From: Prorocentrum cordatum
Lineage: Eukaryota
Length of the DNA stretch: 64,000 nt
Reading direction: 5' to 3'
Assembly (NCBI GenBank): GCA_963575745.1
Contig: CAUYUJ010000002.1
Location: forward strand, 372,001-436,000
The position numbers and the translations under genes were made by a program. Positions 1-53,700 of this stretch are shown piece by piece. Under the pieces are notes generated by a model. That model saw only the letters and a program-made list of their open reading frames with translations. It was not told where the DNA came from and searched no databases. Position 1 is the stretch's first letter; the number at the start of each line of letters is the position of its first letter.

Positions 1-600
1 GCGGCGTGATGCAGGTTGAATGGACATAAAGTCTGGAGGCTCACAGGGTGGGATGATCATGGCCATGGCGGAGAAGACGATTTTGGACGGACATCGCACG
101 GCCGTGTCAGTAATACAAGGAGCTTCAAGGGGACTACCACGTGCGACGAGGAGTTCACTTATTGCTGACATTCAGATGAGGACGATTACAGGCAAGGCGC
201 AGGAGCACGCCAGACTGGCTTGGTTCGAGGTGCTCGCCGGGAGACCCATCAAGTATCAGGAGATCAGCGAGTGCATTCAGAAGGTTCCCGGGGCGTTGGT
301 TACCGATTGCAAGGCCATGTGCGACAGCGCGGTGCGAGCATGCGCGTCTGGGCATGGCTGCAACGACCAGCGATCTGCGATCGAAGCCCTCGCGCTGAAG
401 CAGAGCACGAGGCAGCACTTGCCTCGCTACGGTGGGTGCGCTCGGAGGCAATGGTTGCCGACGGCCTCGCCGAGCTGGAGACCCCAGCGTTGCAGATGAC
501 CCCAGCGTTGCGTTACAAGCAGGCATGGGCCCTAGTTCAGGATTCCAGTTTTACGCCAGCAGAGAAGAGGAATCTCATGCGCAAGGAAGTTCTGCACAGC
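1..600 (+). pseudogene. Decayed Ty1/copia-like pol C-terminus (RNase H region), frameshifted
   Basis: Pieces in ORFs 20..499 and 220..930 (ARLAWFEVL, ALVTDCKAMCD, DQRSAIEALALKQ, LRWVRSEAMVADGL) resemble the copia RNase H motifs VTDCKSLYD, KR..IE and LRWV....QLADGL. They are split across two frames. Confidence 0.6.
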
Positions 601-1173
601 ATGGGCAAGGAGGACAGCAGGCCCCCCGTCATCCCGAGTTTCAGCGACTCGGACCTCGAGGGTGACTTCGAGGATGCGCAGCAGGACAGCCAGCAAATGA
701 TGAGCCACAGTCTCAGGGCTCACACCTCTTCTTTTGCAGCTCTGTCTCACCTCATTTACTCTCGCACTCTCGTTTCAGGGCTGGCGACTTACAGCTTGAA
801 TAATAGGGGAACGCTGAACCCCCCGTGTCGTAGAACTCGGATTCCCCAGGGAGACATTCATAGGATTTCGGGAACTTCCGACCCGGTACCGTTTCAACGT
901 TTCAAGGAGATGTCCAGTCCGATTTCGTAATTATTTTCAATGCTCGAGCGTTTTGTGCGCGGTTTCGGATTACATGCTGATTTGGCTCGTGAACGAGCCC
1001 GCCTTTGTCCTGAGGAAAATATCTACCTTACCTATTTCATTGTACAGTTCGGTTGGTATCGACATCGGCCATATCTGCGAACTCTCGCGAGTTACCCCGA
1101 CGAGATCGACAAGAGATCCATATTGTCCTCCTCCTTGTCCTCCTCCTCGTCCTCTTCCTCCTCCTCCTCTTCC

Positions 1174-1228
1174 TGCTTCTTCTATTCTCTGTGAGCAAGC
1201 TCCTGCTGTCTCCGCAGCTTCTCTGCCC
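1174..1228 (+). repeat. Terminal repeat A1 of YR element 1 (55 bp)
   Basis: tgcttcttctattctctgtgagcaagctcctgctgtctccgcagcttctctgccc, identical at 11424-11478. Confidence 0.95.
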
Positions 1229-1264
1229 AAGTGCCCCCCCGTCGGCCGCGCGTGCGGACGCCTT

Positions 1265-1789
1265 ATGCAGGCGGTCGCACAAGCGGCTCTCGGGGGCGCT
1301 GGGGAGATCTTCTTCAGGGGGCTGCGGGCCGCGCTCTACGAGCGGCTCGTGTCTGCCCCCCTCTCTGTGCTTCAGGACCAAGGGCCTCCTGCGCCTGCCT
1401 GGTCCATCCAGCAGGCGGACTCGTCCGAGGGTGAGGGGGCTTACTGCCCCCTCCCTTCGGCGGGTTCCGCCTGCCCCACCGTCTGCCTCGGGCTGGCGGT
1501 GGATCTGAGCGGCGGGGTCTCTCCCTGGCTGCTCAGCACGGTCGTCGCCCTCCTTTGGGTGACGGCCGCGTGCAGCGCCTGCGCAGGCTGCTGCTTCGGG
1601 CTGCTGGGCCCGTACGTGTGGCGGAGGCTCAGGGCCTCCGCCTGGCCGCGCGGTGCGGTTCCTGCTTCCCCTGAGCAGGACCGCCGTGCGGCGCGAGCGC
1701 TGGCTTACGGGGTTCCGCCTCGGCCTCGAGCGCTCGAGCGGGCAGGCGCCCAGCATTCGGGCGGCAGTTCCCACGACAGCGCCCATTGA
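1265..1789 (+). CDS. Small upstream ORF0 of YR element 1, about 174 aa, with a predicted transmembrane helix
   Basis: First in-frame ATG inside the element is at 1265 (frame of track ORF 953..1789). Hydrophobic stretch WLLSTVVALLWVTAACSACAGCCFGLLGPYVW is followed by RRLR. The TGA overlaps the next ATG (TGATG). Confidence 0.55.
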   Translation: MQAVAQAALGGAGEIFFRGLRAALYERLVSAPLSVLQDQGPPAPAWSIQQADSSEGEGAYCPLPSAGSACPTVCLGLAVDLSGGVSPWLLSTVVALLWVTAACSACAGCCFGLLGPYVWRRLRASAWPRGAVPASPEQDRRAARALAYGVPPRPRALERAGAQHSGGSSHDSAH

Positions 1790-3729
1790 TGGCTGAGCTG
1801 CCACCAGTTGGCGGAGGGCCTCTATGGCCCGAGCTCTACCCATTCGCGGCTCCCACGGCTCGCGATTACGCACGATGGCGCCTAGACGACGGCGACACCA
1901 GCTGGGCAGCTATCCCCCTCGCGTCTCGAGAAGGGGGCATCCTTCTGGCCCTGCCTGGCGCCTTTCGCTCTACGGCGGAGCTCGTGGCTGCCGAGGCGGA
2001 TGGCTTTGCAGGAATGATAGGCCCTTTCCAGCTAGTGGACGTCCAGCTCCAGGGGGCCGCTTCACGGCCGCTCGCCACTACTGCATCCGTCCTCGTCGTA
2101 GACATCGAGGTTGCAGAGCTCGAGCTCGAGTCGCTTTACCCTCTAGAGGTCGGGGAGGACGCAGTCATCGTTCCCTTCGCCGAGGTGCGGGGCCGCGCCT
2201 ATTGGCCACATCTTTCGGGGGTTTGGGTGCTTCGCGAGGGCTACGCACGCTTGCACGGCGCCCCGCCTACTGCAGGAGAAGAGCCGCTCCCAGGGGCCGA
2301 TCGGGCTACTCCCTATCACTCTGCCGACGAGATGGAGGAACCCGAGGGGTTCGCGGCCGACGGGGAAGCCGACCGCACGGCCCCAAGTGCGCGATCTCCC
2401 GCGGACGCTGGAGCGCCGCGCGGCCCGCCCGCGAAGCGCGCGGGCACCGCCGCGCCGCCACGGGTTGCGGGTCCCGCTCCGATCGCTCCTGGTGCCCCTG
2501 CGGCGTCTCTGGACGACGGGGCTCCTATGACCCGTGCCGAAGTAGCTGCCGAAATGCGCGCCTTGCTTGCAGCCCACGCGGCCTCCACGATGGTCGGCAG
2601 ACCCGAGCCGCTGGGCCCCGCGCCGGCTGCCCGGAGCGATCGGCCCGAGGTGCCTCAGCTTTTCAGCGACGAAGCGGTGCGCCTCGGGCTGGATCCTGCG
2701 GGGATCGAGGCCGTCCTGTCTCACGCGCCCGTGGCCCCACAGCGGGTCTCCGCGCGTCCCAAGGGTCCGACCTCCGCGCTGGTCTCGGCGTGGGAAAAGG
2801 CGCGCTCTCTTGCTGTCCCTCGGGCCCCTTCGTCCGGTTTCGGAGCGATGGGCCCCCCGCCGCCACCTGGGCTAGCCCATCCCGCTGCGGCCGACGGCTT
2901 TGCCGAGGCGGGCGGCGCCGACGGGTCAGAGCCGCCCCATGCGGCCAATCCGACGGACTTCAGCCTCATGCTACAGTGCCTGCACCAGTCCCTCCTATTG
3001 CAGCAGGGGCGGGGCCATCGCCCAACCGTCCATCCGCTTCTGGGGACCCTGAGCGACTCAGCTCAAATTCCGCCCACGAGCTCGGGCGACCCCGCGCCCG
3101 CATCGGCCCAGATGGGGGGCATTGCTCGGAGGCGCGAGTGGCAGCAAGCGCTGCTACAGCACGGCCCCGATGTGCGAGGACTGATGAAGGAGAATTTGGC
3201 CCGTGTCCTGGGCGTGGAAGTCAGCGCCGTGACCCCCATGGCCATGCATCAGTATTTTCGGGAGCACAGTCCCTTGGGGGCTCAGCCGACGACGCACGAG
3301 TTGTTGACGCATTTCGCCTTCCTCAGCGCCGAGCTGTGGCGGGCCTGCGAAGAGGGCAACCCCGAGAGAGTCCAGACTTTACTGACGTGTCAGTGCATGT
3401 TCATCGACCAGCTGGCGGGGGACCGCGGCTATCTCGAGGCCGCCTGGTTCCTTACGGGGCTGGAGCCTCCCCCGTGTCGCGTGACCAGTCGTCGCACGGA
3501 GCGCGAGGCCCAGACCCCGTTCTCACCCCTGGTGGATCCTCGCTGGCTGTCGGCGCAGGGCGAATACGTGAAGGAGCTGCAAGCATTTCGGGCGCGTCTC
3601 GACGCCGAGCGCGCCGTCGCGCTCCCCAAGCATCCACCTCATCAGCCCAAGCAGCCCAAGGTTTCGAAGCCCCCCGCCAAGTCCCAGGGTGCGTCCAAGG
3701 CACCGAAGGCGGTGCCCAAGAAGGACTGA
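1789..3729 (+). CDS. Gag-like ORF1 of YR element 1 (646 aa)
   Basis: Position directly upstream of pol. Globular N- and C-terminal blocks (MFIDQLAGDRGYLEAAWFLTGLEPPP...PFSPLVDPRW) flank a Pro/Ala-rich linker, with a basic tail. Assigned by position, not by a search. Confidence 0.7.
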   Translation: MAELPPVGGGPLWPELYPFAAPTARDYARWRLDDGDTSWAAIPLASREGGILLALPGAFRSTAELVAAEADGFAGMIGPFQLVDVQLQGAASRPLATTASVLVVDIEVAELELESLYPLEVGEDAVIVPFAEVRGRAYWPHLSGVWVLREGYARLHGAPPTAGEEPLPGADRATPYHSADEMEEPEGFAADGEADRTAPSARSPADAGAPRGPPAKRAGTAAPPRVAGPAPIAPGAPAASLDDGAPMTRAEVAAEMRALLAAHAASTMVGRPEPLGPAPAARSDRPEVPQLFSDEAVRLGLDPAGIEAVLSHAPVAPQRVSARPKGPTSALVSAWEKARSLAVPRAPSSGFGAMGPPPPPGLAHPAAADGFAEAGGADGSEPPHAANPTDFSLMLQCLHQSLLLQQGRGHRPTVHPLLGTLSDSAQIPPTSSGDPAPASAQMGGIARRREWQQALLQHGPDVRGLMKENLARVLGVEVSAVTPMAMHQYFREHSPLGAQPTTHELLTHFAFLSAELWRACEEGNPERVQTLLTCQCMFIDQLAGDRGYLEAAWFLTGLEPPPCRVTSRRTEREAQTPFSPLVDPRWLSAQGEYVKELQAFRARLDAERAVALPKHPPHQPKQPKVSKPPAKSQGASKAPKAVPKKD

Positions 3730-6700
3730 GGGCGCCTTTGGCGCCCGCCTCCTGGAAGGGTGGGCCTTCGCGGGGCCGGGGTACGCCGCCGCACACAGTC
3801 TGCACCGACGCTGTTGCGGCTGCTAGGCGCGTTTGGGCTCAGCGAGGGCGTGAGGGTAGGAATGCGCTCTTCCAGCGATGCTGTTGCGGCCCCGCAGGGA
3901 GGAGTACGTTCCGCCACCACGCCCTTCGCTCTGCTCCGAACCGCTTCTCGGATCCCTTCGGCCATTTTGGCCGGCGCCTGCCTCAGTCGCGCGCGCCCTC
4001 CAGGGGGCCTGCAGCTCCTGAGGTTGGTGTCCCTGCTGGTGCCTGTTCTCCTTCAAGCACCCCTGCTGCACTTGCCAAAGTCGCGCCATTCGTCGCTGAC
4101 TTGTCTGCCTTGCTGCGCCTGTTTCCAGGCGCGAACATTGATATCACCCACTGGGCGGCAGCGCTGTCCCAGGTTGGGATGGGTGCTCGATGTTCTCTTG
4201 GATCTTTCTCCCGCTCATCTATGCGTGCAATGGACAGGGACGACCCGTACCTTTTGGGGCCGCCTCCCCGCGATCCTTGGCCGTGCCCGCCTGCTCCACC
4301 TCTTGGTCCCCCGCCTGACGGCTTGTCGGCGAGGCGCAGGGAGCGCTGGAGATTGCGGCGCGCGGCGCGGACGCTCGCGCAGTATTCTGTTATTGCGTTG
4401 AACTGGCTCACCTTGGGTCATCCTAGCCTCGCTCCCGCCGAGGCTCGCGTCCGCGCCACGGTCTCGCCCTGCCAGGAGGGCGTCCGCACCCGTATCGAAC
4501 GGTTGTGTCGGATCGCAGTTCGCCTCGCCCGTGGCGGCAAGAGCGACTTAGGTCGAGCCTTCGCCAAGTTCGACTCCACTGAGGTCTCGCTCCATGGCCT
4601 GGCCACCCATGTTGCAGCTTTGGAGGCCTCCTTCACTTCCTCTTCTTCCGTACCCGCCCCCATGCGGCACTGCCCGACCAGCGCTCCTTCTGTGCCTGGT
4701 TCGTTGGCGGCTGCGGCGGCTTGGGACTCCACCCAGGCCGAGCCCTTCGATTTGAAAGTCAGGGCGTCTCGCATCAAGTGGGATTATTCGCCAGAGTTTG
4801 ATCCCGTTCCCTTCCTCTCCGACGCTCGAGTCCGCGAAGCTTTCATCGATCCAGAGGTGATGCGGCTACCGGCATCAGAGTGGCCTGCTGGCCAGAAGGG
4901 AGCGCGCGTCCATATGGACCGCGCCGAGCTGTGGGCCCTACTCCAGAAGTGGGATGCCTGTGGCGCCCTGTACCTGACTCCTGCTTCGGACCTCGCCTGG
5001 GATGAAGCCTGTGGAGCTTTCAGGGTACCGAAGGACAGCGATTTCGACAGGCTGATCCTGAACCCCACGGTCGTGAACAGCCGCTGTGCTTCAATTTCGT
5101 CCAGCACCCAGCGCCTTGGCCAAGGTTTCCTGCTGTGCCGTTTGGGGCTGGCACCTGGGGAATGGCTGGCAGTTTCTTGTGACGACCTACGGGAGTTTTA
5201 CTACACTTTCCGCGTCCCTCCCGCGCGCGCCAGACGTAACGCCCTGCGCGTTCGTCTGCCATCATCTCGCTTCAAGGCCTTTCAAGCCTGGCGCCCCGAG
5301 CTTGAAGGTGTGGATGTTGCGCCCTGCCTCAATGCTCTGGCGATGGGCGACAACATGGCTGTGGAGATTGCCAACTCTGCGCATGAAGGCGTCTTGCACA
5401 GCTTCGGGGCTTTGCGGCCTCACGAGCAGGTTGTCCACCGCTCGCCCTTCCCGCGGGGCCCGTTTGTCGAGATGCTGAATATTGATGACCATACAGGTTT
5501 TCAGAAGCTCTCGTGGCGTGGCTCCGCTCCTCGCCCCGACGACCCGTGTCGCCGTGATCGTGAGGTCTTTGCCGCCTGTGATGCGGGCTACCCGCGCGTG
5601 GGCCTGATACAGCATCCAGGCAAGCGCGCGCGCGGCGAAACGCACAAGGTGGTGGTGGGCGCCGAGGTGGAGGGGCGCATAGGCATCGTCTGCGCTCCTC
5701 TTGTGCGGACGGTGGCCTTGTGCAGACTGACCCTGATCCAAATCTACCTCGGGATCACCACCCGCTCCCTGCTAGCCTCTCTTGTGGGCTGCTGGGTCCA
5801 GGTCTTCCTCTATCGCCGCCCGATGCTCGCCATCTTCACGCACGTCTACAACTTCTTGTCGCGCCTGGCGACCGAGGACGGCATCGAATACGACTTGCCC
5901 CCTTATGTTCGCGACGAGCTTCTGGCCTGCACCTTTTTAGCCTTTACGGCTATAACCGACCTTCGGGCGCAGCCTTGCCCCGAGGTGTTCGGTACGGACG
6001 CGTCTCTCGGCTGGGGGGGCGTTGTCCGCGCTCCTATCAGCCCGCAGCTCTCCGCCGAGCTGTGGCGCAGATCGGAGCACGGGGGGTGGCACACGATTCT
6101 GCACAATCGGAGCCTCCTCGCCGTACTCAGCCGCGGCGTGCCCTTGGGCCCTGAGCTCACCCAACTGCATCACGACCTGGGGCTCCCGTCTATTGAGCCC
6201 CCCGTCGCGCCGCGTTGGGTCACCGAGCTATCAGAGGCGCTGCGCTTTCGGCTCGCGTACAAATGGGAGTTTCGCATGCCTCGTCACATCAATATCCTTG
6301 AGACCACAGTGTATAAGAGTCTGTGCAAATACTGTTGTGTTCGCCTCCCTGACTCTCGTATCCCCGTTCTCCTGGATTCAAAAGTGGCTTTGGGCGCGAC
6401 CGCGCACGGGCGCAGCAGCTCTCCTGGTCTATCTCATGTTCTCTCGACCACTTTGCCCTATGTGATAGGAGGAGGTTTATATATGGGAGGCATGTACGTG
6501 CCCACGGACGTGCATAGGGCCGACGATCCCACGCGCAACCGTGCGGTGAGGCCCCCGTCTCGTGACCCTCCCGCCTGGTTAGTGGAAGCAGAGAGAGGAG
6601 AATTTACTCGCTTTGATTGCATCGCGTACGCCGACTCCCGCTCGTCATTCCCTACTTGTCTCTGGGGCCGATTTGTTGCGCAGCTTGTGGCTCGAGGCCC

Positions 6701-9700
6701 CGAGGGGTTGCTCAGCCACCGTTGGGCGGCCGCCCCCCCCCTCTCGGTGGGCGCGGGGATGGCCGCCGACGCCGCCGGCGACGGCGCCCAGGGCGAAGCC
6801 CTCGACCCCTCGGGCGCCGCCGAGAGCAGCAGCGAAGCTGCTCTCGCCAGCGGAGAGCGTCGCGGGCCTCGCAACGCGCTCTTCGCTGACAGCGACCGGC
6901 CTCTCACATCCACAGCAGACGCCACGCCCAAAGCGTCTGCGTCCTCGGAGGGCGGCTCGCACGGCCCCGACCCTGCCGCCGCCAGCGCTGGTTCGGCTCC
7001 CCCGGCCGCCAAGCGTGCTCCGCCTCTGGCCCTCCGCTCCAAGGCCGCGGCGGCCCCTCCGCCTGCGATCGGGGGGGGCTCGTCGCGCGTCGGCTCACGG
7101 GAAGCGCCAAAGGGGGCCACGGCTGCTACCCCCCGCATCTTCCAGCGAGCGGCCAGGGTGAGCGCCTCTCGCCAACTGCTTGGCGTCGTGGACGGGGCCT
7201 CGCGCAGCACCATCGAAGCCGCCTTCAGGCGCCAGTCCCTAGTCTACCATCCAGACAGGACTCCTGCGCACTTGGGGGCCGATGAGCGAGCAGCCCGCGC
7301 GCTCAACTGGAAGCAGCTCTGTGACGCCAAGTCAGTGTTGCTCCAGGCCCTCTCGCAGGCCGCCGCGCCGCCCGCTGGTCCTAGCACGGGCGGTGACGGT
7401 CCTGCCGCTCGCGCCTACGCCCAGGCAAAAGCGGCAGGGAAGGGCGCCCGCAAGGGCAAGCTGGCTCCTGGGTCGACCATGGCCCTTCAGGCGCTCGAAG
7501 AAGCGGTCTCTTCGCGGGTCGCCCTGGCGAGTGCCGAGCTGGCCCCTCGGGCTGCCCTCCCCGCCTCGGGCGCGCCTCTCCCAAGGAGCGGGGTTTCGTC
7601 TGCCCTCGCGACGCGGGCGGCTGAGTCTGATGCCATCCTCGCCTCCGCCGTGTCGCGCGGCCGCGTGGAGCTCGACGCACTCCGCGCCGCGCGTGCCGAC
7701 GCCACCAGGCGCACGGTGCAGGCTCCTGCACGCGGCGAAGGCGAGCGTGCCGTCGCTCGTGCCGAGCTCGCGGAAGGGATGGCCGATCGCGCCTACTTCC
7801 GACGCTTGCGCGAGGCCGCCAGTCGTGAGGCCGCGGGCTTGCCGCGTACGGCTCCCGTCCAGCTGGGTCGGGATTGGCGCAAAACTCTGCGCGCCGTCCT
7901 GCACAACGCTGAGGTCTCGACGGGCCTCGCCAACGCGGATCGTGCCGCTCGTGCTGGGGACGCCCCCGCGTCGTCCACTGGGCGCTCCCTGGCCGAGGTG
8001 GAAGCTGTGGACCCGCGCGCCTTGGCGAGACCTGCCGACGACCCAGCGTCCAGCTTCAGTCGTCGTGAGGGGCGCGCGGTCCGCGCCCGCCTGGGCCCGC
8101 GGGACGAAGCTGTCGAGGACCAGCCCAATCGCGGGGGTCACGCGCCGCACTCCGCCTCGCGCACGGGCGGCACGCGCAACAGGCGCGCCAAGAAGCAGCG
8201 GCGAGCTTCGACGGCGGCGCCCCCCGCCCCTGAGGGGGGGCCCGACACGACGCCGGGCCGCAGGGCGCGTCGCACTGCTAATGCGCGCCGCTGGGCAGGC
8301 GCGGCACGCCCCAGCTCCGCCGCGGGAGTGGGCCCTCCACCGCGGAGCCGCAGCCCTGCCCGCAGCCGCACGCGGTCTCCGAACCCGTACGGGACTGATC
8401 GCACCTCTCCCTCGGGAGGCTGCTCCTCGCCTCCCATCGACGGCTCGATCTCGCCTGAGGAGCCTTCGGGGCCGCCGGCGGGGGAGGCATCGGAGGGCCC
8501 GCACACTCCTGACGGGTCTCCGCCCGCGAGCGCCCGCAGCCGCTCGAGAGCGGAGCCCGCGTGCGAGGAGGACTCTCCGACGGAGCTCGAGGACGTCGTG
8601 CTGAGTGCCCTCGCTGACTCCTCGGTGGACCTCGAGCGCGTCGTGGCGGGCCTGAACCCCGAGGTCCTCCTCCGCTTGCAGGCGGCCTTCCCTCGCCGCG
8701 CGGAGGCCTCTCCGCCCGCCGCTCACGCCGCGGCTCGCAGCCGCTCTCGGGGCCGCGGCACGCGCGCAGGCTCCGAGACGCCGCGGCCCGTCCCCCCGCC
8801 GCCGCCACCACCCCGTCACCACTCTGGTGGGCGTGCGGCGTCGCGATCCCGCGGGTCGGCCGCCGGCCAGGGGCTTAGTCGAGCGAACGCGCGCGACTCC
8901 TCTCGTGCGCCTTCGCGTCAGGCGACGTCGCCTGGGCGTCGCGAGGTGCGCTCCCCTCGAGTCGCTCCGAAGCGTCGCCCGAGCCCCGCCACTTCGCAGC
9001 AGCCAGCCACGCCCCGCCATGGTGCGAGCTCGGACGTCGCCTTCGCAGGCAGCTCCCGCGCGGACTCCGCTGCTCAGGCCCCTCCGACTTCGGTAGGCAT
9101 GCGCTCTTCCAGCGATGCTGTTGCGGCCCCGCAGGGAGGAGGGCGTGCCGCCGAGGAAGGGGGGTCTTCGAGTGGCTTCGCGCTTGGCCGAGCTTCAGAG
9201 CCCGAGCTGCATCTCAGCGGCTCTCACAGCGGTGACGCTGGAAGCGCCGCGGCTGCAGCCTTCGCAGCGCGGCGCACGGCCTCTGCGGCCGCTGAGCAGC
9301 CCTTGCCTCCAGGGGCCGCCAGCGCCCTAGCGTGGCGCCTCAATATCGGCGGTGAGAAGATCACTGTGGTGAGGTGGGGACCCGCCTGGCAAGCTGCCTT
9401 CCAGAGCGCGGCGTCGTGGCTGAGGTCTTTCGCACCCGCAGGGGCCGCCGAGCCCGAGGGCAAGGATGACTTGCACTGCCTCCTGCGGGCCTTGCACGCC
9501 TACAAGCGCCTGTTTCAGACAGGCGGCGCCGAGCCGATCGACGAGGCCTCGTGGTTGCATCCTTACGTGGCCGTCGTCGAGCCCGAGGCTATCCCCGCGC
9601 ATGCTGACCTCCAAGCCATGGGGGCGGGCGCCATCCGTGGCATCGGGCTCGGCTCAAAGATCGAGCAGCGGCGGCGCGCGGGCAAATTGGCCTGCCTTTT

Positions 9701-11255
9701 CGACCTTCTGTACCATGTGCAGGACAGTCACGGCGCCATCCCAGCAGCGCTGTGGGGATCCCACTCCCCTCCGTCCGAGATCCTCGACGCCTTCGCGGAG
9801 GTGGTGCCCGTTCCACATCATTCGGGCTTCACGTCCTCGGCAGCTCGTTCCGAGCTCGCCGAAGCAGCCGCAGCTGCGCGTGCCGAGCCGCGCCCGCCTT
9901 TTGACTGGGCGACCCTCGAGGGAGGGGACGCTCTGCCAGCCGAGATCGAAGCAGGGGCTCGCCGTGCCTACCGTAACATGGGCGGATCCTTCAGCTCGGC
10001 GCGGGCGATGCTGGCGGAGGCGTCGGGGTTCGAGACCGACGGGCGGGACGCCCTCGTTCCGCCCTTCTACGCGTCCAGGCGCAGGAGGGCCGCCACGCTG
10101 ATCAGCTCTCCAAGCCCTGGCCGCCCTGCGCTCATCCTGTGGTGCGTCTGCGGCCTCTGCATCTCTCTGGGAGCCGCGGCGCCGACCGCAGGCCAAGGGC
10201 TTAGTCGGGCTGCGCCGTCCGCGCCCGCTCGCCCTCCGCGCACTCCCTTCGTGCGCGATTCTCACCTCACCTCCGCGTATCTCGACCGTCGCTCGAGATC
10301 GATTGATGCCTTCGAGCTGTGGTTAGCAGAACACACTGGCGTGCCACCCGCCACACTTTACCGAAGCGGGATACTTCTCGCCCGTTTCCTCGCGACCTTC
10401 GGCGTGTGGCTTCATGATGCAGGTTTCCCTCATTATATTTTGGTCCATGCCATCTTGGGAATCCAAAGCGCCCATCCGCATTGGAAGGCCTTTCTGACAG
10501 AAGCTTGGGACGTAGCGAAACAATGGAAGCTTGCGGAGCCGCCAAAGCTCCGTCCCCCCTTGCCACGCGCGCTGCTGCGCGCCATGGTCGGGCTCTGTCT
10601 CGCCTGGGACTGGCCGGTGATGGCGGCCCTGCTGCTCATGGGCTTCACAATGTTCCTCAGGCCTGGCGAACTGCTGGCGTCACGCCGCTGTGACCTGTCG
10701 CTTCCATGCGACCGTCTCGAAGTTGAAGGGGATGCTTTTCTTTCGATTCTTGTTCCAAAGACCAGAAGAACGTACCCGACGCAACATGCTCGCTGCTCCG
10801 ATCGGGGCACGGTGAAGGTATTGAATCAAGTGTTTGGGAGGTTGGCTTCCACCGATCCTCTCGCCCCCTTCGGCGCGAGCGGCTTCCGTACTCGGTGGAA
10901 TCATCTGCTTTTGGCTCTGGGCGTCCCTCTTGCCAAAGCAGGTCAGGGGCTCAACCTGACGCCCGCTTGTCTGCGGGGCTCTGGCGCAACAGACTTCTAT
11001 ATCGCTACGGAAGACGTCCCCCGCGTCTTCTGGCGAGGGCGCTGGCGTCAAGCTTCCAGTGCCGAGCGCTACCTGCAAGCCGCCGCCGCCTCCACAGTTC
11101 TTGCTGCGCTGCCCGAGCACGCACGGGCTCGTATCTTGTTCTTCGCCACCGCCAGCGACCGCCTTGTCGCTTCGTTCCTCCAAGTCGGCCCCGCCGCTTG
11201 GCCTGCCCTGCTTGCGGCCGCCCGCCAAAACCTTGTCACTTCGCAAGGTCCTTGA
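1824..11255 (+). CDS. Pol polyprotein of YR element 1: RT - RNase H - J-domain - low-complexity region - dsRBD-like - tyrosine recombinase (true start uncertain)
   Basis: RT: GAFRVPKD..DRLILN, DDLREFYY, LAMGD, NIDD (5478-5489). RNase H: TDAS (about 5994), HINILE, LLDS, ADDPTR. J-domain: HPD at 7248-7256. YR: FLRPGE, PKT, ACLRGSGAT, RGRW, RY (about 10650-11075). The frame is uninterrupted for 3143 codons. Confidence 0.9.
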   Translation: MARALPIRGSHGSRLRTMAPRRRRHQLGSYPPRVSRRGHPSGPAWRLSLYGGARGCRGGWLCRNDRPFPASGRPAPGGRFTAARHYCIRPRRRHRGCRARARVALPSRGRGGRSHRSLRRGAGPRLLATSFGGLGASRGLRTLARRPAYCRRRAAPRGRSGYSLSLCRRDGGTRGVRGRRGSRPHGPKCAISRGRWSAARPAREARGHRRAATGCGSRSDRSWCPCGVSGRRGSYDPCRSSCRNARLACSPRGLHDGRQTRAAGPRAGCPERSARGASAFQRRSGAPRAGSCGDRGRPVSRARGPTAGLRASQGSDLRAGLGVGKGALSCCPSGPFVRFRSDGPPAATWASPSRCGRRLCRGGRRRRVRAAPCGQSDGLQPHATVPAPVPPIAAGAGPSPNRPSASGDPERLSSNSAHELGRPRARIGPDGGHCSEARVAASAATARPRCARTDEGEFGPCPGRGSQRRDPHGHASVFSGAQSLGGSADDARVVDAFRLPQRRAVAGLRRGQPRESPDFTDVSVHVHRPAGGGPRLSRGRLVPYGAGASPVSRDQSSHGARGPDPVLTPGGSSLAVGAGRIREGAASISGASRRRARRRAPQASTSSAQAAQGFEAPRQVPGCVQGTEGGAQEGLRAPLAPASWKGGPSRGRGTPPHTVCTDAVAAARRVWAQRGREGRNALFQRCCCGPAGRSTFRHHALRSAPNRFSDPFGHFGRRLPQSRAPSRGPAAPEVGVPAGACSPSSTPAALAKVAPFVADLSALLRLFPGANIDITHWAAALSQVGMGARCSLGSFSRSSMRAMDRDDPYLLGPPPRDPWPCPPAPPLGPPPDGLSARRRERWRLRRAARTLAQYSVIALNWLTLGHPSLAPAEARVRATVSPCQEGVRTRIERLCRIAVRLARGGKSDLGRAFAKFDSTEVSLHGLATHVAALEASFTSSSSVPAPMRHCPTSAPSVPGSLAAAAAWDSTQAEPFDLKVRASRIKWDYSPEFDPVPFLSDARVREAFIDPEVMRLPASEWPAGQKGARVHMDRAELWALLQKWDACGALYLTPASDLAWDEACGAFRVPKDSDFDRLILNPTVVNSRCASISSSTQRLGQGFLLCRLGLAPGEWLAVSCDDLREFYYTFRVPPARARRNALRVRLPSSRFKAFQAWRPELEGVDVAPCLNALAMGDNMAVEIANSAHEGVLHSFGALRPHEQVVHRSPFPRGPFVEMLNIDDHTGFQKLSWRGSAPRPDDPCRRDREVFAACDAGYPRVGLIQHPGKRARGETHKVVVGAEVEGRIGIVCAPLVRTVALCRLTLIQIYLGITTRSLLASLVGCWVQVFLYRRPMLAIFTHVYNFLSRLATEDGIEYDLPPYVRDELLACTFLAFTAITDLRAQPCPEVFGTDASLGWGGVVRAPISPQLSAELWRRSEHGGWHTILHNRSLLAVLSRGVPLGPELTQLHHDLGLPSIEPPVAPRWVTELSEALRFRLAYKWEFRMPRHINILETTVYKSLCKYCCVRLPDSRIPVLLDSKVALGATAHGRSSSPGLSHVLSTTLPYVIGGGLYMGGMYVPTDVHRADDPTRNRAVRPPSRDPPAWLVEAERGEFTRFDCIAYADSRSSFPTCLWGRFVAQLVARGPEGLLSHRWAAAPPLSVGAGMAADAAGDGAQGEALDPSGAAESSSEAALASGERRGPRNALFADSDRPLTSTADATPKASASSEGGSHGPDPAAASAGSAPPAAKRAPPLALRSKAAAAPPPAIGGGSSRVGSREAPKGATAATPRIFQRAARVSASRQLLGVVDGASRSTIEAAFRRQSLVYHPDRTPAHLGADERAARALNWKQLCDAKSVLLQALSQAAAPPAGPSTGGDGPAARAYAQAKAAGKGARKGKLAPGSTMALQALEEAVSSRVALASAELAPRAALPASGAPLPRSGVSSALATRAAESDAILASAVSRGRVELDALRAARADATRRTVQAPARGEGERAVARAELAEGMADRAYFRRLREAASREAAGLPRTAPVQLGRDWRKTLRAVLHNAEVSTGLANADRAARAGDAPASSTGRSLAEVEAVDPRALARPADDPASSFSRREGRAVRARLGPRDEAVEDQPNRGGHAPHSASRTGGTRNRRAKKQRRASTAAPPAPEGGPDTTPGRRARRTANARRWAGAARPSSAAGVGPPPRSRSPARSRTRSPNPYGTDRTSPSGGCSSPPIDGSISPEEPSGPPAGEASEGPHTPDGSPPASARSRSRAEPACEEDSPTELEDVVLSALADSSVDLERVVAGLNPEVLLRLQAAFPRRAEASPPAAHAAARSRSRGRGTRAGSETPRPVPPPPPPPRHHSGGRAASRSRGSAAGQGLSRANARDSSRAPSRQATSPGRREVRSPRVAPKRRPSPATSQQPATPRHGASSDVAFAGSSRADSAAQAPPTSVGMRSSSDAVAAPQGGGRAAEEGGSSSGFALGRASEPELHLSGSHSGDAGSAAAAAFAARRTASAAAEQPLPPGAASALAWRLNIGGEKITVVRWGPAWQAAFQSAASWLRSFAPAGAAEPEGKDDLHCLLRALHAYKRLFQTGGAEPIDEASWLHPYVAVVEPEAIPAHADLQAMGAGAIRGIGLGSKIEQRRRAGKLACLFDLLYHVQDSHGAIPAALWGSHSPPSEILDAFAEVVPVPHHSGFTSSAARSELAEAAAAARAEPRPPFDWATLEGGDALPAEIEAGARRAYRNMGGSFSSARAMLAEASGFETDGRDALVPPFYASRRRRAATLISSPSPGRPALILWCVCGLCISLGAAAPTAGQGLSRAAPSAPARPPRTPFVRDSHLTSAYLDRRSRSIDAFELWLAEHTGVPPATLYRSGILLARFLATFGVWLHDAGFPHYILVHAILGIQSAHPHWKAFLTEAWDVAKQWKLAEPPKLRPPLPRALLRAMVGLCLAWDWPVMAALLLMGFTMFLRPGELLASRRCDLSLPCDRLEVEGDAFLSILVPKTRRTYPTQHARCSDRGTVKVLNQVFGRLASTDPLAPFGASGFRTRWNHLLLALGVPLAKAGQGLNLTPACLRGSGATDFYIATEDVPRVFWRGRWRQASSAERYLQAAAASTVLAALPEHARARILFFATASDRLVASFLQVGPAAWPALLAAARQNLVTSQGP

Positions 11256-11266
11256 GCACGGGTATG

Positions 11267-11670
11267 GCTGCCTCGCCGACATCGGCGACCAGACGGACTC
11301 CACCGTCTGACGCGCGGCGCCCCGGCTTGAGCGCGCGGGACGGGCCTGCCCATTTTGGGCCGCCCCGCGCGCGCACGCCGCGGCCGCGCTCGGAGACAGC
11401 TCGCTAGCGCGCGAGCGGGAGAATGCTTCTTCTATTCTCTGTGAGCAAGCTCCTGCTGTCTCCGCAGCTTCTCTGCCCCCCTCCCTCCTCTCCCACTCTA
11501 AGGCTGACGGGCGCTGCCTCGCCGACATCGGCGACCAGACGGACTCCACCGTCTGACGCGCGGCGCCCCGGCTTGAGCGCGCGGGACGGGCCTGCCCATT
11601 TTGGGCCGCCCCGCGCGCGCACGCCGCGGCCGCGCTCGGAGACAGCTCGCTAGCGCGCGAGCGGGAGAAT
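11267..11670 (+). repeat. 3' terminal block B1-A2-spacer-B2 of YR element 1
   Basis: 158-bp B copies at 11267-11424 and 11513-11670. The A copy (11424-11478) abuts B1. Confidence 0.95.
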
Positions 11671-12010
11671 CCTCGTCCTGCTCCTCCTCTTCCTCCTCCC
11701 TCTCCCGCTCCTTGTGCCCCTCTTCTTCCCTTTTTCCTCCCTTTTCCTCGTCCTCCTTTTTCCTCCGCGTCGGTCCATTTCGCCTCATGCGCATCGCCGT
11801 CCTCATCGTTCATCCGCCTCGTTCAGACTCCTCCTCGTTTACCTTCCTCTTCCTCCTTTCCTCCTCCTCCACTTCCTCTTCCGCCTCTTCACGATCCCCC
11901 ATCAATCCTCTCCTTCTCTCGCCTTTCGTCCCATTATTCCTCTCTCCTCCTCCCCCCCTCCTCCTCGTCCTCCTCCTCCACCTCCTTTTTCTCCCCTTCC
12001 TTCTCCTCCC
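11671..12010. repeat. CCT-rich polypyrimidine low-complexity tract
   Basis: Degenerate (CCT)n. It continues the tract at about 1125-1173 that YR element 1 interrupts. Confidence 0.85.
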
Positions 12011-12084
12011 ACTGCCGAACAATTACCTTGGCGAGGGACCCAACCATATGCAATTGTGAATACATCGCTTGTGATAATCTCCTT

Positions 12085-12720
12085 CGGCGGAGTTCCCCAG
12101 CCGCATGCGAGCGCAGACAGTGGGGGCCGTCGGTGGAGCTCCCCATGGGGCCACGACGCGTGCGAGGCGCGTGCCAACATTGCATTGGAATCGCATGCGA
12201 GCGCATCCACGGAGGCCTTCGGTGGAGCTCCCTATTTGGGTCACGAAACATGTGAGGGGTGTGCCGAAATGGGGGCGCAACCGCATGCGAACGTAACCAC
12301 GGGGGGCCGTATGTGGAGCTCCCTATGGGGCCACGAAGCGTGTGAGGGGTGTGCCGAAATGTGCGCGGAACCGATCGCGAACGCAGCCACTGGGGCTTTC
12401 GGTGGAGTTCCCTATGGGGCCACGAAGCGTGTGATGGGTGTAACAAAATAAGGGCGGAAACGCATGCGAACGCAGCCACTGGGGACCATCGGTGGAGCTC
12501 CCTATTGGGTTACGAAGCGTGTAAGGGGGGTGCCGAAATGGGCGGTGCAACCGCATGCGAACGCAGCCACTGGGGCATTCAGTGGAGCTCCCTATGGGGC
12601 CACGAAGCGTGTGGGGTGTGTGCCGAAATGTGTGCGGAACCGCATGCCAACGCAGCCATTGGGGCCTTCGGTGGAGTTCCCTATGATGGTGCCGCGAAGA
12701 ACGTGAGGGGTGTGCCGAGG
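12085..12720. repeat. Degenerate tandem repeat, unit about 90 bp, about 7 copies
   Basis: Core (c)ggtggagctccctatggggccacgaagcgtgtgaggggtgtgccgaaatg recurs at about 12131, 12220, 12311, 12400, 12490, 12580 and 12669. Confidence 0.9.
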
Positions 12721-12739
12721 GGCAAGGATGGAAAGAGTG

Positions 12740-12825
12740 AGGAAGAGGAGGGATGAGGCAGAGGAGGAGGAGGAGGAGGAGGAGGAGGAGGAGGAGGAGG
12801 AGGAGGAGGAGGAGGAGGAGGAGGG
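12740..12825. repeat. (GGA)n microsatellite
   Basis: Visible trinucleotide run. Confidence 0.95.
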
Positions 12826-13669
12826 GTGATCAGGAACGCAGGGCGCTGTCTCTCTAACCAAAGCGGGGGCCCAGCACGTCAGGATGGCTGGACAAGAAAA
12901 GGCCGTTCCCCCCTCCTCGCGCTCCCCCCGCCCCCGCGAGGAGCGCGACAGCCAAGGCGCGGGCCCCGAGGCGAGCCTGGTCGGCAGCGAGAGCGTGAGC
13001 GTCCCGACAATCAGCTTGCTCGGGGCGATCGACGACGAGCCGGAGCCGTCCATCCCTCCCCTTTCTTCCCCTTTTCCTTCCTCCTCTCCTCCTCCTCCTC
13101 CTCCTCCTCCTCCTCCTCCTCCTCCCCTTTTTCCCCCCATAGGGAGCGCTTCCCTGTCGCACGCCCAGACGCGTCGGCGGGGCGGGCGGGGCGTTTCGCC
13201 CGATACTTCGTGACCACGTATTCTCCATAACCTTGAAACTCGCAATAGTTTCCACTGGTGCAGCGCGGGCCGTTTACAACGTGTGGTTTTCGCATACGCG
13301 CAGCGCACAGTCGTCTTCAAAACTGGAAGACGTTAGGGTTTCAACTTGTGGTTTCCGCCTCAGCACCGCGCCGCGCGTGCGCGACCTCGTAGCAACTTTT
13401 GTATTGACCACAATAGGAAAATCGACGCGCGCGTTGGTCTGGCAACTACGGTGGACCCGTAGCGGTGACCTGTTGGACCTGGAATTGAACCTGGGTTCTG
13501 GAGTACGATTTCACGCATGATCCTGCTGAAATCCTTTTCGCGCGTGCGCGTGAGGAGTTTGTTTTGCCCACAGTCGGAAAGTCGCCAGGCTGGCTTGAAA
13601 ATCCATGTGGCCTTTTAGCCGTGACCGACCCGATTTCGGATGACCGCTTTGTTGTTCGAGGTCCCACAG

Positions 13670-14080: not shown

Positions 14081-14507
14081 GTGAGCGACAAGCCGCGACG
14101 GGGAGCGGGAAACCCCAGCGGAACAGCGCCAAGCCCTGGGAGATTTAAGCACTTTTGGGGCCCAGTCCCTTACGGAACTCTTCAGGAGGGAGGCGTGAGG
14201 TTTAGAGGATGGCGCAAAGGACCTGAGGACACGCCCACTTCGTGCTCAAAGATTCACAGACCTACCCTTCCCACCCCTACGCTCCACCGGGAAGGGTGCC
14301 AGTTTTTTTGTTGTTTTTGGATTTTCCTTAGGTTTTTTTTTTTTTTTTCTTTCCCCCCCCCCCCCCCTTAGGTGTTTCTATGGTTTTCGACTCCAGCCCT
14401 TTGGTTTCTTTGGTTTTGTTTGGTTTTCCGTTTGGTTTTCTTTGGTTTTCTTGCCGTTGTGGAAGGAGGAGGAGGAGCAGGAGGAGGAGGAGGAGGGGAG
14501 GGAGGGA

Positions 14508-14544
14508 TCCGTAGCCATTTTGGTTCAAGCCATTTTGGCTCAAG
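14508..14544 (+). other. Dinoflagellate spliced leader plus tandem relic leader
   Basis: TCCGTAGCCATTTTGGTTCAAG (14508-14529) is one mismatch from DCCGTAGCCATTTTGGCTCAAG. It is followed directly by CCATTTTGGCTCAAG (14530-14544). Confidence 0.93.
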
Positions 14545-14651
14545 TAATCCATTTCTCGAGGTGGCTTACAGTGAACTATTGAGTTTTGCGCGATCTCCTG
14601 CTCGAGCCTGCCCAGGCCTTGCAGATTCTTTTCGTAGCCAGCGTCACATTC

Positions 14652-50219: not shown

Positions 50220-50776
50220 GGGTCTGGCCGGGAGCCGTCTCCGTTGCAGGGGGGGACGGCACCTGCAGGCCTTGGGCGCGCGGAGGCGCGCCCCCCGCCC
50301 CCTGCTCCCGGGACGCCAGTCTCGGGATCGCCCGAGGCGATGAGGATCCTTGCCGGACGAGTTCCAGGCGACGGTCCCGCAGTTCCCCCCGCCGGGAGGG
50401 GGAGGAAGGAAGAAGCCCAGCTGAGCCGGGAGCGTTAAGGACCAGCGCAGTCACACGCTGGTTACTCCAGCTTCCTGAGCGACCCACTGGCGTCGGACTA
50501 CCTGGAGACCTGCGAGTAGCGCCGCCGCCACGGCAGTGCCACCAGACGCGGACGCAAGGCTGCAGGCCGGAGCTAGGCGCTAGCACACACCAAGGCGGCC
50601 ACCCGAGAGGCGGAGGGCGAGAACCAGGCTGAATGGAACGGCGAGCATTCGGGAGGGAGGCCGATTACTGGCTAGGCCTAGTGCCGAGTGGCAAAAGGCA
50701 AGACGGGGAGGGAAAAGAGCCGCGGCACGGAGCGCCTGCTCGCTGACGGCCTGGCACTTGCTGATGGGGTTCGGGC

Positions 50777-53700
50777 GTGAGGGCCGACGCGGCTAAGGCC
50801 GCGGCCCCGAGCACGCCCCTGCCTGCCCTCCGCCCGCCTGAGCGGCAGCTTCGCGGCAGCTCGCAGGCTCGGCGGTGGCGCCAGATGCTAGCCGAGGTGG
50901 GCACGGGCGTCAGCTCCAAGTTCAGGCTCGCCCTCGCGGTCCACGAGGCGGTGCACGGTTCGCCAGGGGCGATCGGGCGGTACGTTCGTAAGATGTGCAC
51001 TTCGCCAGACCCCGCGGCCAGCTTCGCGCGGCTGCGCGAGGTGTTGCCGTTACCGCTGCCCGACGCCCCGCTCTTCGAGAGGTACCGTGCCGCCTGGTAC
51101 CTACACCAGCAGCTGCCGGAGACCTGCGAGGTGGACGCCGCCACGGCGCAGGGGTGGGCCCAGCTCGTGGTCTTCAGCCTGAACTACCAGTACACGGGGC
51201 ACATGCGTTGTCCAACCGTCGCCGCGAGGCGGCCCACGGCAAGTCAGATCAGTGCGCTCGGCATTGTGCAGGAGGCCTGTGAGTATTTCGTTCAGGATGC
51301 CGCCACATCTTTCGAGCTCCCGGACTGGGACCAGGTCATCGCGTCGAGGACCGTCTCCTACGGGGGCGAGGAGACGTCCCGCGCCCTGCCACTCTCGCTT
51401 GCGGGGATCATGCCAGGCCTCCCCGCGCGGGGCGTCGCCGCCTCTGTCAAGGCGCTCGACATCGCGGATGCTCAGGTGGGCGGGTGGAATTTTTTGTTTT
51501 TTGGTTTTTTTGGTTTTTTTTTTTTTTTTGGGATTGCGACCACCTCGCTTGCTTTGGCCTCTCTTTGCTACATCGTGATGAGTGGTGGCCTCTGCCTCCT
51601 TTGCATGCTGCAGTACGAGGTTCACGCGGGCGGCGATCAGGCACGTCCAAGCTAGGGAGTGGTCAGTGGTTGTTGGTTTTACAGTATCGCGGTCCAAGCT
51701 CGTCGTGAGCTGGGGATCATGGCTGCTGCCTGTCGCCTGCGCCGATACCGCCAGTCTCGACCTAATCCGAATCTCTTCAAGGTTTCGGGTAACCCCCCCC
51801 CACCAAGGTGCTCGCCGGGGCGTTTGGTGTCGCCAAGGGTGGCACGCCGTCACCTGGCCAGGCGTGCGCCCAGCGCCTGATCATCAACATGGTCCCGGCC
51901 AACAGCTACCAGCGCATCATGAGGGACGACATCGGGACCCTTAGCGCGTCGCCCTCGTGGGTCGCCATCCCGCTCCCAGAGGGCCACATGCTGCTTTGGT
52001 CGTCAGATGACCAAGCCTCCGCTTTCTACTGCTACGAGCTGCCCGAGGCTTGGCAGCCGTACATGACCCTCGCGGAGGCGATCCCGAACGAGCTCATCGG
52101 CGTGCCGGGTCCTGGGAAGACACACCTCGCGCTGCGCGTCATCCCGATGGGCTGGATCAACGCGGTCACGGTGTTTCAGCACTGCCACAGGCGCCTCGGG
52201 TTCGGCTCTCGCCCCCTCGCTGCGGGGTCCGCGGAGCTCGAGTGGCGCAAGGACCGGCCACTTCCGTTCAAGTCGAAGGAGCTCGAGCAGCAGTGGATCC
52301 AGTACTACATCGACGACTGGGACCATGGCGAGGTGGTGCCCAACGCGATGGTCGCGGAGCTCCTCGGCACGATGAGCTGCGCGCAGGAGGAGCAGAGGGC
52401 CGCCTACGGCCGCTCGGGGATCAGCGTCGCCCCCGGCAAGGCCAAGCACCGCGCGCTGGTCCTGGAGCGGATGGGCGCGGGTCTTGACGGGGCCGTCGGC
52501 CGGGTCGGGGTCACGACCGAGAAGCTTCACCAGCTGCTGGCGTTCATCCTGTGGGGCATGGGCAGACAGGGCCTCTCGTCGCAGGGCATGCTCATGATCC
52601 TAGGCAGGTGCGTCAGGGCAGCGGAGTTCAGGAGGCCTTTCATGGGGTTCCTCAACAGCGTGTGGGCTGCTGGGCGCTGGACGCGCCCGCAGGCTGTTCC
52701 CCTTGGCATGTGCGACGAGCTCTTGGGCTTCGCGATGGCGCTGCCGCTGGCATACACCGACCTGCGCGCAAGGATCGACACTTGTGTCATTGCGACCGAT
52801 GCCAGCGAGCGCGCCGGGGGCATCTGCCACACGGCCGGGCTCTCGGCGCAGGGCGTTGCCTGCGCGAGAGGGGGAGCATCAGCAGTGACTTTGCGGCCTG
52901 GTGCAGTTGCGGCTCCTGTGCGTGGTGTGCGGTGGCGCCCTCGCATAGTTCTCATCGAGCTCTTCGCTGGCGCTGCTGGGGCCGCGGTGGCGGCCTCCAG
53001 ACTCCCGATCGACGTGATGGCCCACGTCAGCTGCGAGGTCGAGCCCGCTGCCCGGCGACTGGTGCGTCGCCGCTGGGCGGGCGTGATTGAGCTTGGCAAC
53101 ATCGAGGCCGTCGACGCGGCGCGGTTTACTGAGATGCTGAAGGGCTACGCGCGGGACGCCGACTGGGTCGTCTTGACCGCGGGGAGCCCGTGCCAAGACC
53201 TTGCGAGCATCAATGTCGTGGGGACCGGCCTAGAGGGGTCGAGGTCGAGGCTCTTCTTCCGGGTCCCCGAGCTGATCCAGGCAGCGGAGGCTGCCTTTCC
53301 CAAGCGCACCATGTGGTTCGTCGAGAACGTGTTCAGCATGACCCTAGAGTCGAGGGCAAAGTTCACCAGGGCGCTTGGAGTCACGCCCGTGTTCCTCGAT
53401 GCCAGGTGTCTCACTCACGTCAGGCGGCCCCGCCTGCACTGGTGCTCGTGGCCGGTCACGGCGTTCTTGGCGTCCGACGCCACCGTCGAGACCAAGGGTG
53501 TGGGAGAAGCCGCGTACTTCAAGGTCTCGCTTGCGGTGGAGAGGCTCCCACTGAGTGCCTCGCTCCTGGAGGGCTGGTCGACGCTGGACCCTGAGGCAGA
53601 CCTCCCTTGCTTCACGAGGCCAATCCCGCGACGCCACCCGCCGTTCCGGCCCGTGGGCCTCGACCGCGCCTCGGTGCTGGCCGCGGAGCGCTGGGCTGCC

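Follow-up and report, generated by a model that had tools for sequence, protein, structure and literature searches.

A stretch of 64,000 nt from the genome of the dinoflagellate Prorocentrum cordatum (the window, to which all coordinates given here refer) carries, at 1174-11673, a 10.5-kb retrotransposon in which the segment 7161-7350 encodes a genuine Hsp40-type J-domain. The domain lies inside a long lineage-specific insert that separates the RNase H-like part of the element from its tyrosine recombinase. The element is thus a DIRS-like retrotransposon of a dinoflagellate whose cargo is a co-chaperone module. We lean towards the view that the J-domain is a real accessory domain borne by the element, that it has been acquired together with a module of ~1,150 residues by a DIRS/Ngaro-like sublineage and that it probably recruits Hsp70 in cis.

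The translation of 7161-7350 is SASRQLLGVVDGASRSTIEAAFRRQSLVYHPDRTPAHLGADERAARALNWKQLCDAKSVLLQA (63 residues), with the HPD tripeptide encoded by CAT CCA GAC at 7248-7256. The Pfam family DnaJ (PF00226) matched the excised 63-residue piece with 33.5 bits (E 4.5e-8) and a longer piece of 103 residues with 31.9 bits, both exceeding the curated cut-off of 27.8 bits, and it was the sole Pfam family found at E ≤ 1 in the whole open reading frame (ORF) of 3143 codons in which the segment lies. When the sequences of the Protein Data Bank (PDB) were searched with phmmer (E ≤ 1), 44 of the 45 sequences retrieved were J-domain proteins (the best being DNAJB1, 6z5n, E 8.2e-6); the lone remaining match was an unrelated methyltransferase (E 0.45). 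A profile of the module family, built from ten sequences, retrieved 12 PDB sequences at E ≤ 1e-3, all 12 of them J proteins. As a control for the GC-rich background, 135 other six-frame ORFs of the window with a length of 150-700 amino acids were compared with DnaJ, and none matched at E ≤ 0.01.

The predicted structure points the same way. An AlphaFold2 model of ORF residues 1700-2142 was built on an alignment of nine relatives (ORF residues are numbered in the 3143-codon frame throughout, and designations of the form P00xx stand for relatives found in protein searches). In this model the J region has a predicted local distance difference test (pLDDT) score of 83-98, with helices at ORF residues 1769-1786, 1794-1808 and 1819-1847, and the HPD tripeptide occupies the loop between the second and the third helix (95-109 and 120-148 in the numbering of the model). 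About 45 of the top 50 rows returned by Foldseek are J-domains, with a root-mean-square deviation of 1.4-3.3 Å over 58 columns, and the top rows include 5nro_B, the J-domain of DnaJ bound to DnaK. VIA-align gave Z scores of 8.6 (1wjz), 8.5 (2guz_B) and 7.4 (5nro_B) against J-domains; for the helical part 3′ of the domain it gave only generic, uninformative matches to coiled-coil hairpins (Z 8-9). The original prediction that a J-domain with its HPD at 7248-7256 would be found here has thus been borne out by Pfam, by phmmer against the PDB and by the AlphaFold2 model, and the comparison with PF00226 that it had proposed as a check returned the match of 33.5 bits on the excised piece.

The features of the element, in the order of their coordinates, are as follows.
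1174..1228, + strand: repeat A1, left end of the element, 55 nt, 55/55 identical to A2
1265..1789, + strand: ORF1, 174 codons, one hydrophobic membrane-like segment, no Pfam match
1789..3729, + strand: gag-like ORF, 646 codons, frame shifted by +1 against that of the long ORF, recognized by GC periodicity and homology
1824..11255, + strand: long open frame, 3143 codons, stop-free, pol proper from ~4059
3845..3925, + strand: hairpin 1, 81 nt, between gag and pol, -51.4 kcal/mol, z -5.7
4746..6113, + strand: reverse-transcriptase region, ORF residues 975-1430, motif A Asp 1121, motif C I-D-D 1220-1222
5988..6701, + strand: RNase H-like region, D1392, E1493, D1518, D1567
6657..6707, + strand: degenerate remnant of the 2A leader of relatives, without NPGP, recognized by alignment; the insert begins just 3′ of it
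6708..10208, + strand: lineage-specific insert, ~1,150 codons, no alignment to reverse-transcriptase relatives, 20 homologues of its own
7161..7350, + strand: J-domain, Pfam match at 7176-7340, HPD at 7248-7256, recognized by Pfam, PDB phmmer, model and fold matches
7746..8249, + strand: conserved C-terminal block of the J-module, predicted helical, 92/148 identical to P0062 and 40/66 to P0064
8250..9242, + strand: low-complexity stretch rich in Arg, Ser, Pro and Ala, matched only by P0077
9082..9162, + strand: hairpin 2, 81 nt, inside the insert, -53.2 kcal/mol, z -5.3
9243..10127, + strand: pre-recombinase domain, homologues P0061, P0065, P0067, P0069, P0072-75, P0079 and P0080
10128..10184, + strand: stretch of highest hydrophobicity in the ORF, at the position of the 2A leader of relatives, just 5′ of the recombinase
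10215..11213, + strand: tyrosine-recombinase region, R2946, E2949, K2979, H2988, R3051, W3070, Y3083
11267..11427, + strand: repeat B1, 160/161 identical to B2
11424..11478, + strand: repeat A2, identical to A1
11513..11673, + strand: repeat B2, right end of the element, 160/161 identical to B1

The order A1 - coding region - B1 A2 B2, together with the encoded proteins, points to a tyrosine-recombinase retrotransposon of the order DIRS, perhaps Ngaro-like or SymbioDIRS-like. The element lies in a TCC-rich microsatellite with no evident target-site duplication. Its repeats are 99-100% identical, which by analogy with the dating of long terminal repeats (LTRs) suggests a recent insertion and a young element, and its coding capacity is apparently intact.

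The enzymatic parts have been assigned through relatives and conserved residues. A query consisting of the reverse transcriptase (RT) and the RNase H-like part found 58 relatives (E 2e-155 to 2e-4), among them gene models of Symbiodinium, Cladocopium, 'Skav' and Prorocentrum; the best protein relatives are Symbiodinium and Cladocopium gene models with 39-47% identity. The Asp of RT motif A and the [I/Y]DD of motif C are invariant in 23 of 23 aligned members and intact in the window. The four acidic residues of RNase H type (D-E-D-D, 1392-1567) are likewise invariant in all 23, and their order and contexts are RNase H-like; this part owes its name to the motif pattern only, and the spacing of ~100 residues from the first Asp to the Glu is longer than usual for RNase H. 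In the recombinase part (ORF residues ~2798-3130), whose relatives align at E down to 3e-59, the catalytic-type residues are conserved in 22-23 of 23 members apart from the position of the first Arg, where 8 members have R and 15 have H; the K, W and Y are invariant, the second Arg is present in 22 of 23, and the set is intact in the window. The pattern presumably follows that of Cre.

Pfam was silent on the RT, RNase H and recombinase of the window element. RVT_1 matched neither the window element nor any of 30 family members, and PF00589 was met in one of the 30 only (P0059, 25.9 bits against a cut-off of 27.1 bits). The family profile compared with PDB sequences likewise gave no RT, RNase H or recombinase match. 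In the protein Atlas the RT-RNase H part adjoins clusters that carry RVT_1 (score 0.97), with 17 of 30 matches in that set.

None of the 58 RT relatives aligns with ORF residues 1663-2713, PF00226 is listed for none of them, and none of the 22 relatives that were scanned matches it. The insert, which accounts for this gap, has no stop in its reading frame as against 6-25 in the other five frames, and mononucleotide shuffles of it contain 17.2 stops on average (minimum 8). It is built of the J-domain, the helical block, the low-complexity linker and the pre-recombinase domain, in that order. The pre-recombinase domain has no Pfam match and no usable Atlas match, and its comparison by hhalign with the methylase-like spacer of relatives gave a probability of 0.2%.

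A canonical 2A peptide (a Leu-rich leader followed by GD[IV]ExNPGP) is placed exactly at the RNase H-recombinase junction in 30 of the 58 relatives; those that bear it lie among P0005-P0036 and P0057. In the closest relatives the recombinase starts 20-60 residues past the RNase H-like part. In distant ones the two are separated by a spacer of ~400 residues with methyltransferase-like motifs (read by eye and without a Pfam match) and then by a 2A-like GE..[N/H/K]PGP before the recombinase. The 2A motif D(V/I)ExNPGP does not occur in any frame of the window. Just 5′ of its recombinase the element has instead the hydrophobic stretch 10128-10184, which may be what is left of a 2A. The closest relatives also contain, between the RT and the RNase H-like parts, a domain of ~300 residues with methyltransferase-like motifs (FxGxG, GPPC, EQP) and without a Pfam match; since the window element does not have this domain, it is a methylase-less member of the group.

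The use of 2A in tyrosine-recombinase (YR) retrotransposons resembles that in 2A-bearing non-LTR retrotransposons in that one frame is split into two proteins, and no report of a 2A peptide in YR retrotransposons was found in our literature search. In non-LTR retrotransposons the 2A stands at the N-terminus of LINE ORFs, whereas the YR relatives have it past the RNase H-like part and ahead of the recombinase, and the J-bearing copy has lost it. It is tempting to go one step further, and we do so only tentatively: the RNase H/recombinase junction might be a modular cargo slot that was at first bounded by 2A peptides, filled with a methylase-like part elsewhere and with a co-chaperone here, and the J-module might be the first Hsp70 recruiter encoded by a retrotransposon, selected for folding, assembly or post-integration disassembly of the recombinase/RT complex.

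The J-module belongs to a multi-copy family and is not a one-copy accident; the domain recurs in relatives, in gag-linked gene models and in variant contigs of four sequencing runs. When 1.84 billion representative proteins were searched with the insert by HMMER, 20 of them matched, nine over the J-module (27-73% identity over the aligned part) and 11 over the linker or the pre-recombinase domain. DnaJ was matched on its own in five of the seven proteins that span the J region, with 27.9, 25.7, 19.9, 19.7 and 17.3 bits. Three of the proteins, P0066, P0070 and P0076, are gene models of P. cordatum itself that join a gag piece of the family to the J-module: P0066 holds gag residues 101-152, and P0070 and P0076 hold gag residues 567-599 at 85% identity with the J-domain directly after them. 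They resemble element copies with internal deletions that gene prediction has taken up into its models. At the other end of the module, P0061 and P0073 extend from the pre-recombinase domain into the recombinase. A separate search for near matches returned P0063 and P0064 only.

Contigs of four public runs mapped to 1001-11900 span the whole element, the J region included. In run X1 there were 2831 contigs at ≥99% identity, 2590 at 95-99%, 1494 at 90-95% and 122 lower, numbers that speak for presence and continuity, depth being no copy number. A marine metagenome contig of 590 nt, ~94% identical, bridges 6585-7174 and so leads from the end of the RNase H-like part into the J-domain, and further contigs bridge the insert junctions at 6189-6741 and 10153-10531. 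Scans of metagenomes, genome contigs and viral contigs gave no relatives of the J-module.

The comparison of the module between copies gave mixed signals as to the constraint on the J-domain. In relatives the J-domain is conserved more strongly than the flanking parts. P0064 shares 44/60 residues with the window in the J-domain and 10/44 in the preceding flank, and P0070 shares 34/60 in the domain and 16/66 and 13/58 in its flanks; in P0062 the domain (30/60) and the flank (24/67) are surpassed by the C-terminal block (92/148). The HPD is kept in the window and in four of the seven relatives covering it. Two deletion variants have been met. P0064 has an in-frame deletion of ORF residues ~1843-2074, and one contig of run X4 lacks exactly 606 nt within 7499-8106, shortly 3′ of the J-domain, a loss of 202 codons that preserves the frame; in both, the J-domain and the C-terminal block are kept.

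J-proteins dock Hsp70 by means of the HPD loop, trigger ATP hydrolysis and load Hsp70 onto a nearby protein. If the domain of the window element does likewise, its history and action might be pictured in the following way. A dinoflagellate DIRS/Ngaro-like sublineage would have gained the ~1,150-residue module where the RNase H-like part meets the recombinase. Because 2A is absent from the window copy, the J-domain would be made either as an internal part of the complete Pol polyprotein or as the leading part of a recombinase-bearing portion. The HPD loop would dock host Hsp70 and trigger its ATPase in cis, the chaperone would be delivered to a very large, partly disordered polyprotein, and there it could aid the folding or activation of recombinase or RT or remodel their nucleoprotein complexes. 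Hsp70 binding and a benefit to transposition are what we infer by analogy with known J-proteins. As the client we favour the recombinase-bearing portion, since the module replaces the 2A that in relatives separates Pol from recombinase and adjoins the recombinase in independent fragments; the step that is helped could then be its folding, its assembly on the DNA or the taking apart of the product complex. Activation of the RT of the kind known from hepadnaviruses, a part of the original proposal, may be an alternative role. The link to heat stress in that proposal finds no support in these data.

Several results weigh against a functional J-domain at this place. The whole 3143-residue ORF scores 25.1 bits with DnaJ (E 1.9e-5), just under the cut-off of the family, and among the relatives only P0062, with its 27.9 bits, reaches that cut-off. 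Foldseek gave a best E of 0.049 and none ≤ 0.001 with the 443-residue query; the canonical helix IV is unmatched, and positions 5-53 of the 63 in the Pfam model are covered. A search for long proteins (777-2215 amino acids) with the J-module returned none, and the databases yielded no full-length protein with both RT and J-module, which is weak evidence. RPD stands in place of HPD in three of the seven relatives (P0066, P0070 and P0076, the last two being near-duplicates). Finally, among the 40 best-supported differences between window and contigs (802 further differences lie outside this count), the synonymous to non-synonymous ratio is 4:6 in the insert, 6:1 in RT-RNase H, 3:0 in the recombinase, 7:7 in gag and 1:5 in ORF1. 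Only two of the 40 sites fall in the J-domain, one synonymous and one non-synonymous. Beside the 9:1 of the enzymes, the insert with its 4:6 appears the less constrained of the two and, over its whole length, weakly constrained, small as the numbers are.

The last two of these results suit a rival, which we regard as doubtful but worth holding in view, namely that the J-module, or at any rate the J-domain in it, is passenger cargo: a fragment of a host J-protein gene gained by template switching and carried along by a subfamily of recent success, tolerated but without any use to the element. Its occurrence in none of the 58 RT relatives would agree with this, as would the largely low-complexity composition of the insert (734 of its 1167 residues are A, R, S, P or G) and the very existence of deletion variants. 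The copy is moreover young, and because of this its open frame is weak evidence of selection. A mere passenger, however, would hardly be expected to have a J-domain that ranks first or second in conservation among the parts of the module even where relatives are only 27-54% identical overall, nor to retain the HPD in the window and four of the seven relatives, and both deletion variants have spared the J-domain and the frame. The module is tied to gag or recombinase of the family in every case with enough flank, and no host source gene was found, all 20 library matches being fragments of the module.

It is improbable, in our judgement, that the J-module acts in trans, released as a protein of its own (e.g. 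from the Met at 6759) and directed at silencing or stress proteins of the host. The initial Met of P0062 does align with Met 1646 of the window, the remnants of 2A-type leaders at both ends of the insert might once have released the module, and the J-domain of polyomavirus T antigen works on host targets. Yet the start of P0062, on a contig of 4.2 kb, is perhaps an artefact of gene calling, neither end of the insert shows a stop, a 2A or a protease site in the window copy, and no client-binding domain has been recognized in the module. That the domain is a chance resemblance, a by-product of GC-rich open frames, or an assembly misjoin has very little to commend it: long spurious ORFs are common in the window and the score of the whole ORF falls short, but Pfam, PDB, profile, AlphaFold2, Foldseek and VIA results all indicate J-domains, none of the 135 control ORFs matches DnaJ, and independent contigs from other runs reach across the boundary of the insert on either side (6585-7174, 6189-6741 and 10153-10531).

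Retrotransposons depend on host chaperones, and a full-text search of the literature, in which relevance was judged by title and which covered journals outside subscription, found no report of a J-domain encoded by one. The nearest precedents of the preferred reading, an element-borne recruiter of Hsp70, are viral. J-domains have been described in the polyproteins of 11 RNA-virus families, with a proposed role in folding, processing or assembly (Neri et al., bioRxiv 10.1101/2022.02.15.480533). As in the window element, a selfish replicator there carries a J-domain in a large polyprotein; unlike those viruses with their RNA-dependent RNA polymerases (RdRPs), the window element is integrated into a genome and has a predicted RT and a predicted tyrosine recombinase. 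The same source gives the polyomavirus large and small T antigens as carriers of a J-domain whose HPD engages host Hsc70 (10.1101/2022.02.15.480533). The J-domain of T antigen is N-terminal on a replication helicase and serves host cell-cycle targets, whereas that of the window element is internal, 1,000 residues upstream of the recombinase. The hepadnaviral RT requires Hsp70/Hsp40 for activity (PMC2094093). The hepadnavirus borrows host Hsp40 and is not known to have a J-domain of its own, whereas the window element encodes one.

Among retrotransposons the closest comparison is with elements of Symbiodiniaceae. The DIRS elements of Symbiodinium have split direct repeats of the form A-coding-B-A-B, and the RTs of dinoflagellate DIRS do not fit the Pfam model (de Mendoza et al. 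2018, PMC5890265). SymbioDIRS-Dnmt3 and the DIRS-like elements without a DNA methyltransferase (DNMT) are like the window element in their split repeats and accessory domains in Pol and, as far as its parts are rightly assigned, in an RT divergent from Pfam and a tyrosine recombinase. They differ in the cargo, which in SymbioDIRS-Dnmt3 is a cytosine methyltransferase and here a J-module, and in its place, since the cargo of the window element has the RNase H-like part on one side and the recombinase on the other and shares its frame with the two; the available portion of the SymbioDIRS description mentions neither a J-domain nor 2A peptides (PMC5890265). With Ngaro, also of the order DIRS, the window element shares the A1...B1 A2 B2 repeats, the predicted order gag / RT-RNase H / YR and the lack of an evident target-site duplication, and it differs in having the additional ORF1 and the 3.5-kb insert. 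Ngaro elements are usually about half the size of the 10.5-kb element. DIRS-like elements form a large share of the enormous dinoflagellate genomes, and the J-module would be the second host function captured by them, after DNA methyltransferases. If the domain works, a mobile element can hard-wire the recruitment of Hsp70 into its polyprotein, as polyomaviruses and some RNA viruses do.

The first part of the long frame calls for a correction. The in-frame position of the J-domain and the order RNase H - J-domain - recombinase stand as originally proposed, but the assumption that the whole 3143-codon ORF is pol does not, its first ~740 codons overlapping the gag-like gene. Homology to the pol of relatives starts only at ORF residue ~746-770 (nt ~4059-4130) and the first in-frame ATG past the gag stop is at 4179, so that the '3143-codon pol' consists of ~2,400 pol codons and a gag overlap. 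The gag frame at 1789-3729 is supported by codon-position GC, and its product is homologous to the N-terminal parts of P0037, P0039, P0041, P0054 and P0057 and to the gag pieces in P0066, P0070 and P0076. The stop of ORF1 overlaps the start of gag (TGATG at 1787-1791) in a classic termination-reinitiation layout.

Over gag (1797-3729) the frame of the long ORF has no stop in 643 codons, as against 16.8 expected from shuffling of the gag codons; the shuffles had at least 6 stops, none of 2000 reached 0, and the third frame has 17. Long junk-like N-termini rich in Arg, Ser and Gly, resembling gag/pol overlaps, precede pol in P0016, P0029 and P0038. These data suggest that a gag/pol overlap of ~1.9 kb is maintained, either because translation of pol begins upstream and passes through gag or because frameshifting requires an open frame. 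Inspection by eye for a -1 slippery site or an intron joining gag to pol revealed nothing convincing.

The two hairpins of the element share a core, a 61-nt repeat at 3855-3915 and 9092-9152 with 93% identity. Of their 35 pairs 29 are kept in both copies, seven through compensatory changes; six of these seven lie in the outer stems, which are formed by unrelated flanks. In public contigs the 61-nt motif also stands between different flanks, with loose ends at 9091-9092 and 9151-9153. Hairpin 1 precedes pol and hairpin 2 the pre-recombinase domain; in neither case does an ATG occur early in the region that follows. No Rfam family was found in 1-13000 at E ≤ 0.1, the hairpins included. Between hairpin 1 and pol, at 3961-3971 (+), there recurs an 11-nt spliced-leader-like core (two matches in all against 0.06 expected). 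At 14507-14545 (+) lies what is probably the dinoflagellate spliced leader; a second, truncated copy comes after it, the mark of recycled cDNA.

The window holds further mobile DNA. A second DIRS-like element is located at 50765-55525 (+), where the family profile matches with E 1e-38 and 1e-22. Its ORF 51793-54702 contains an RT, a C5 DNA methylase (PF00145, 32.6 bits) and an RNase H-like part, and its recombinase is encoded by the ORF 54086-55525; this is the layout of SymbioDIRS-Dnmt3. On the opposite strand, 18860-48000 (-) is occupied by very long ORFs of up to 1832 codons with Pfam matches to Exo_endo_phos and RNase_H, probably a giant LINE. The ORF at 59046-59789 (+), with a Pfam match to RVT_1 of 49.5 bits, is another retroelement fragment. 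Just downstream of the 10.5-kb element, at 12145-12718, there are seven copies of a tandem repeat of ~90 bp.

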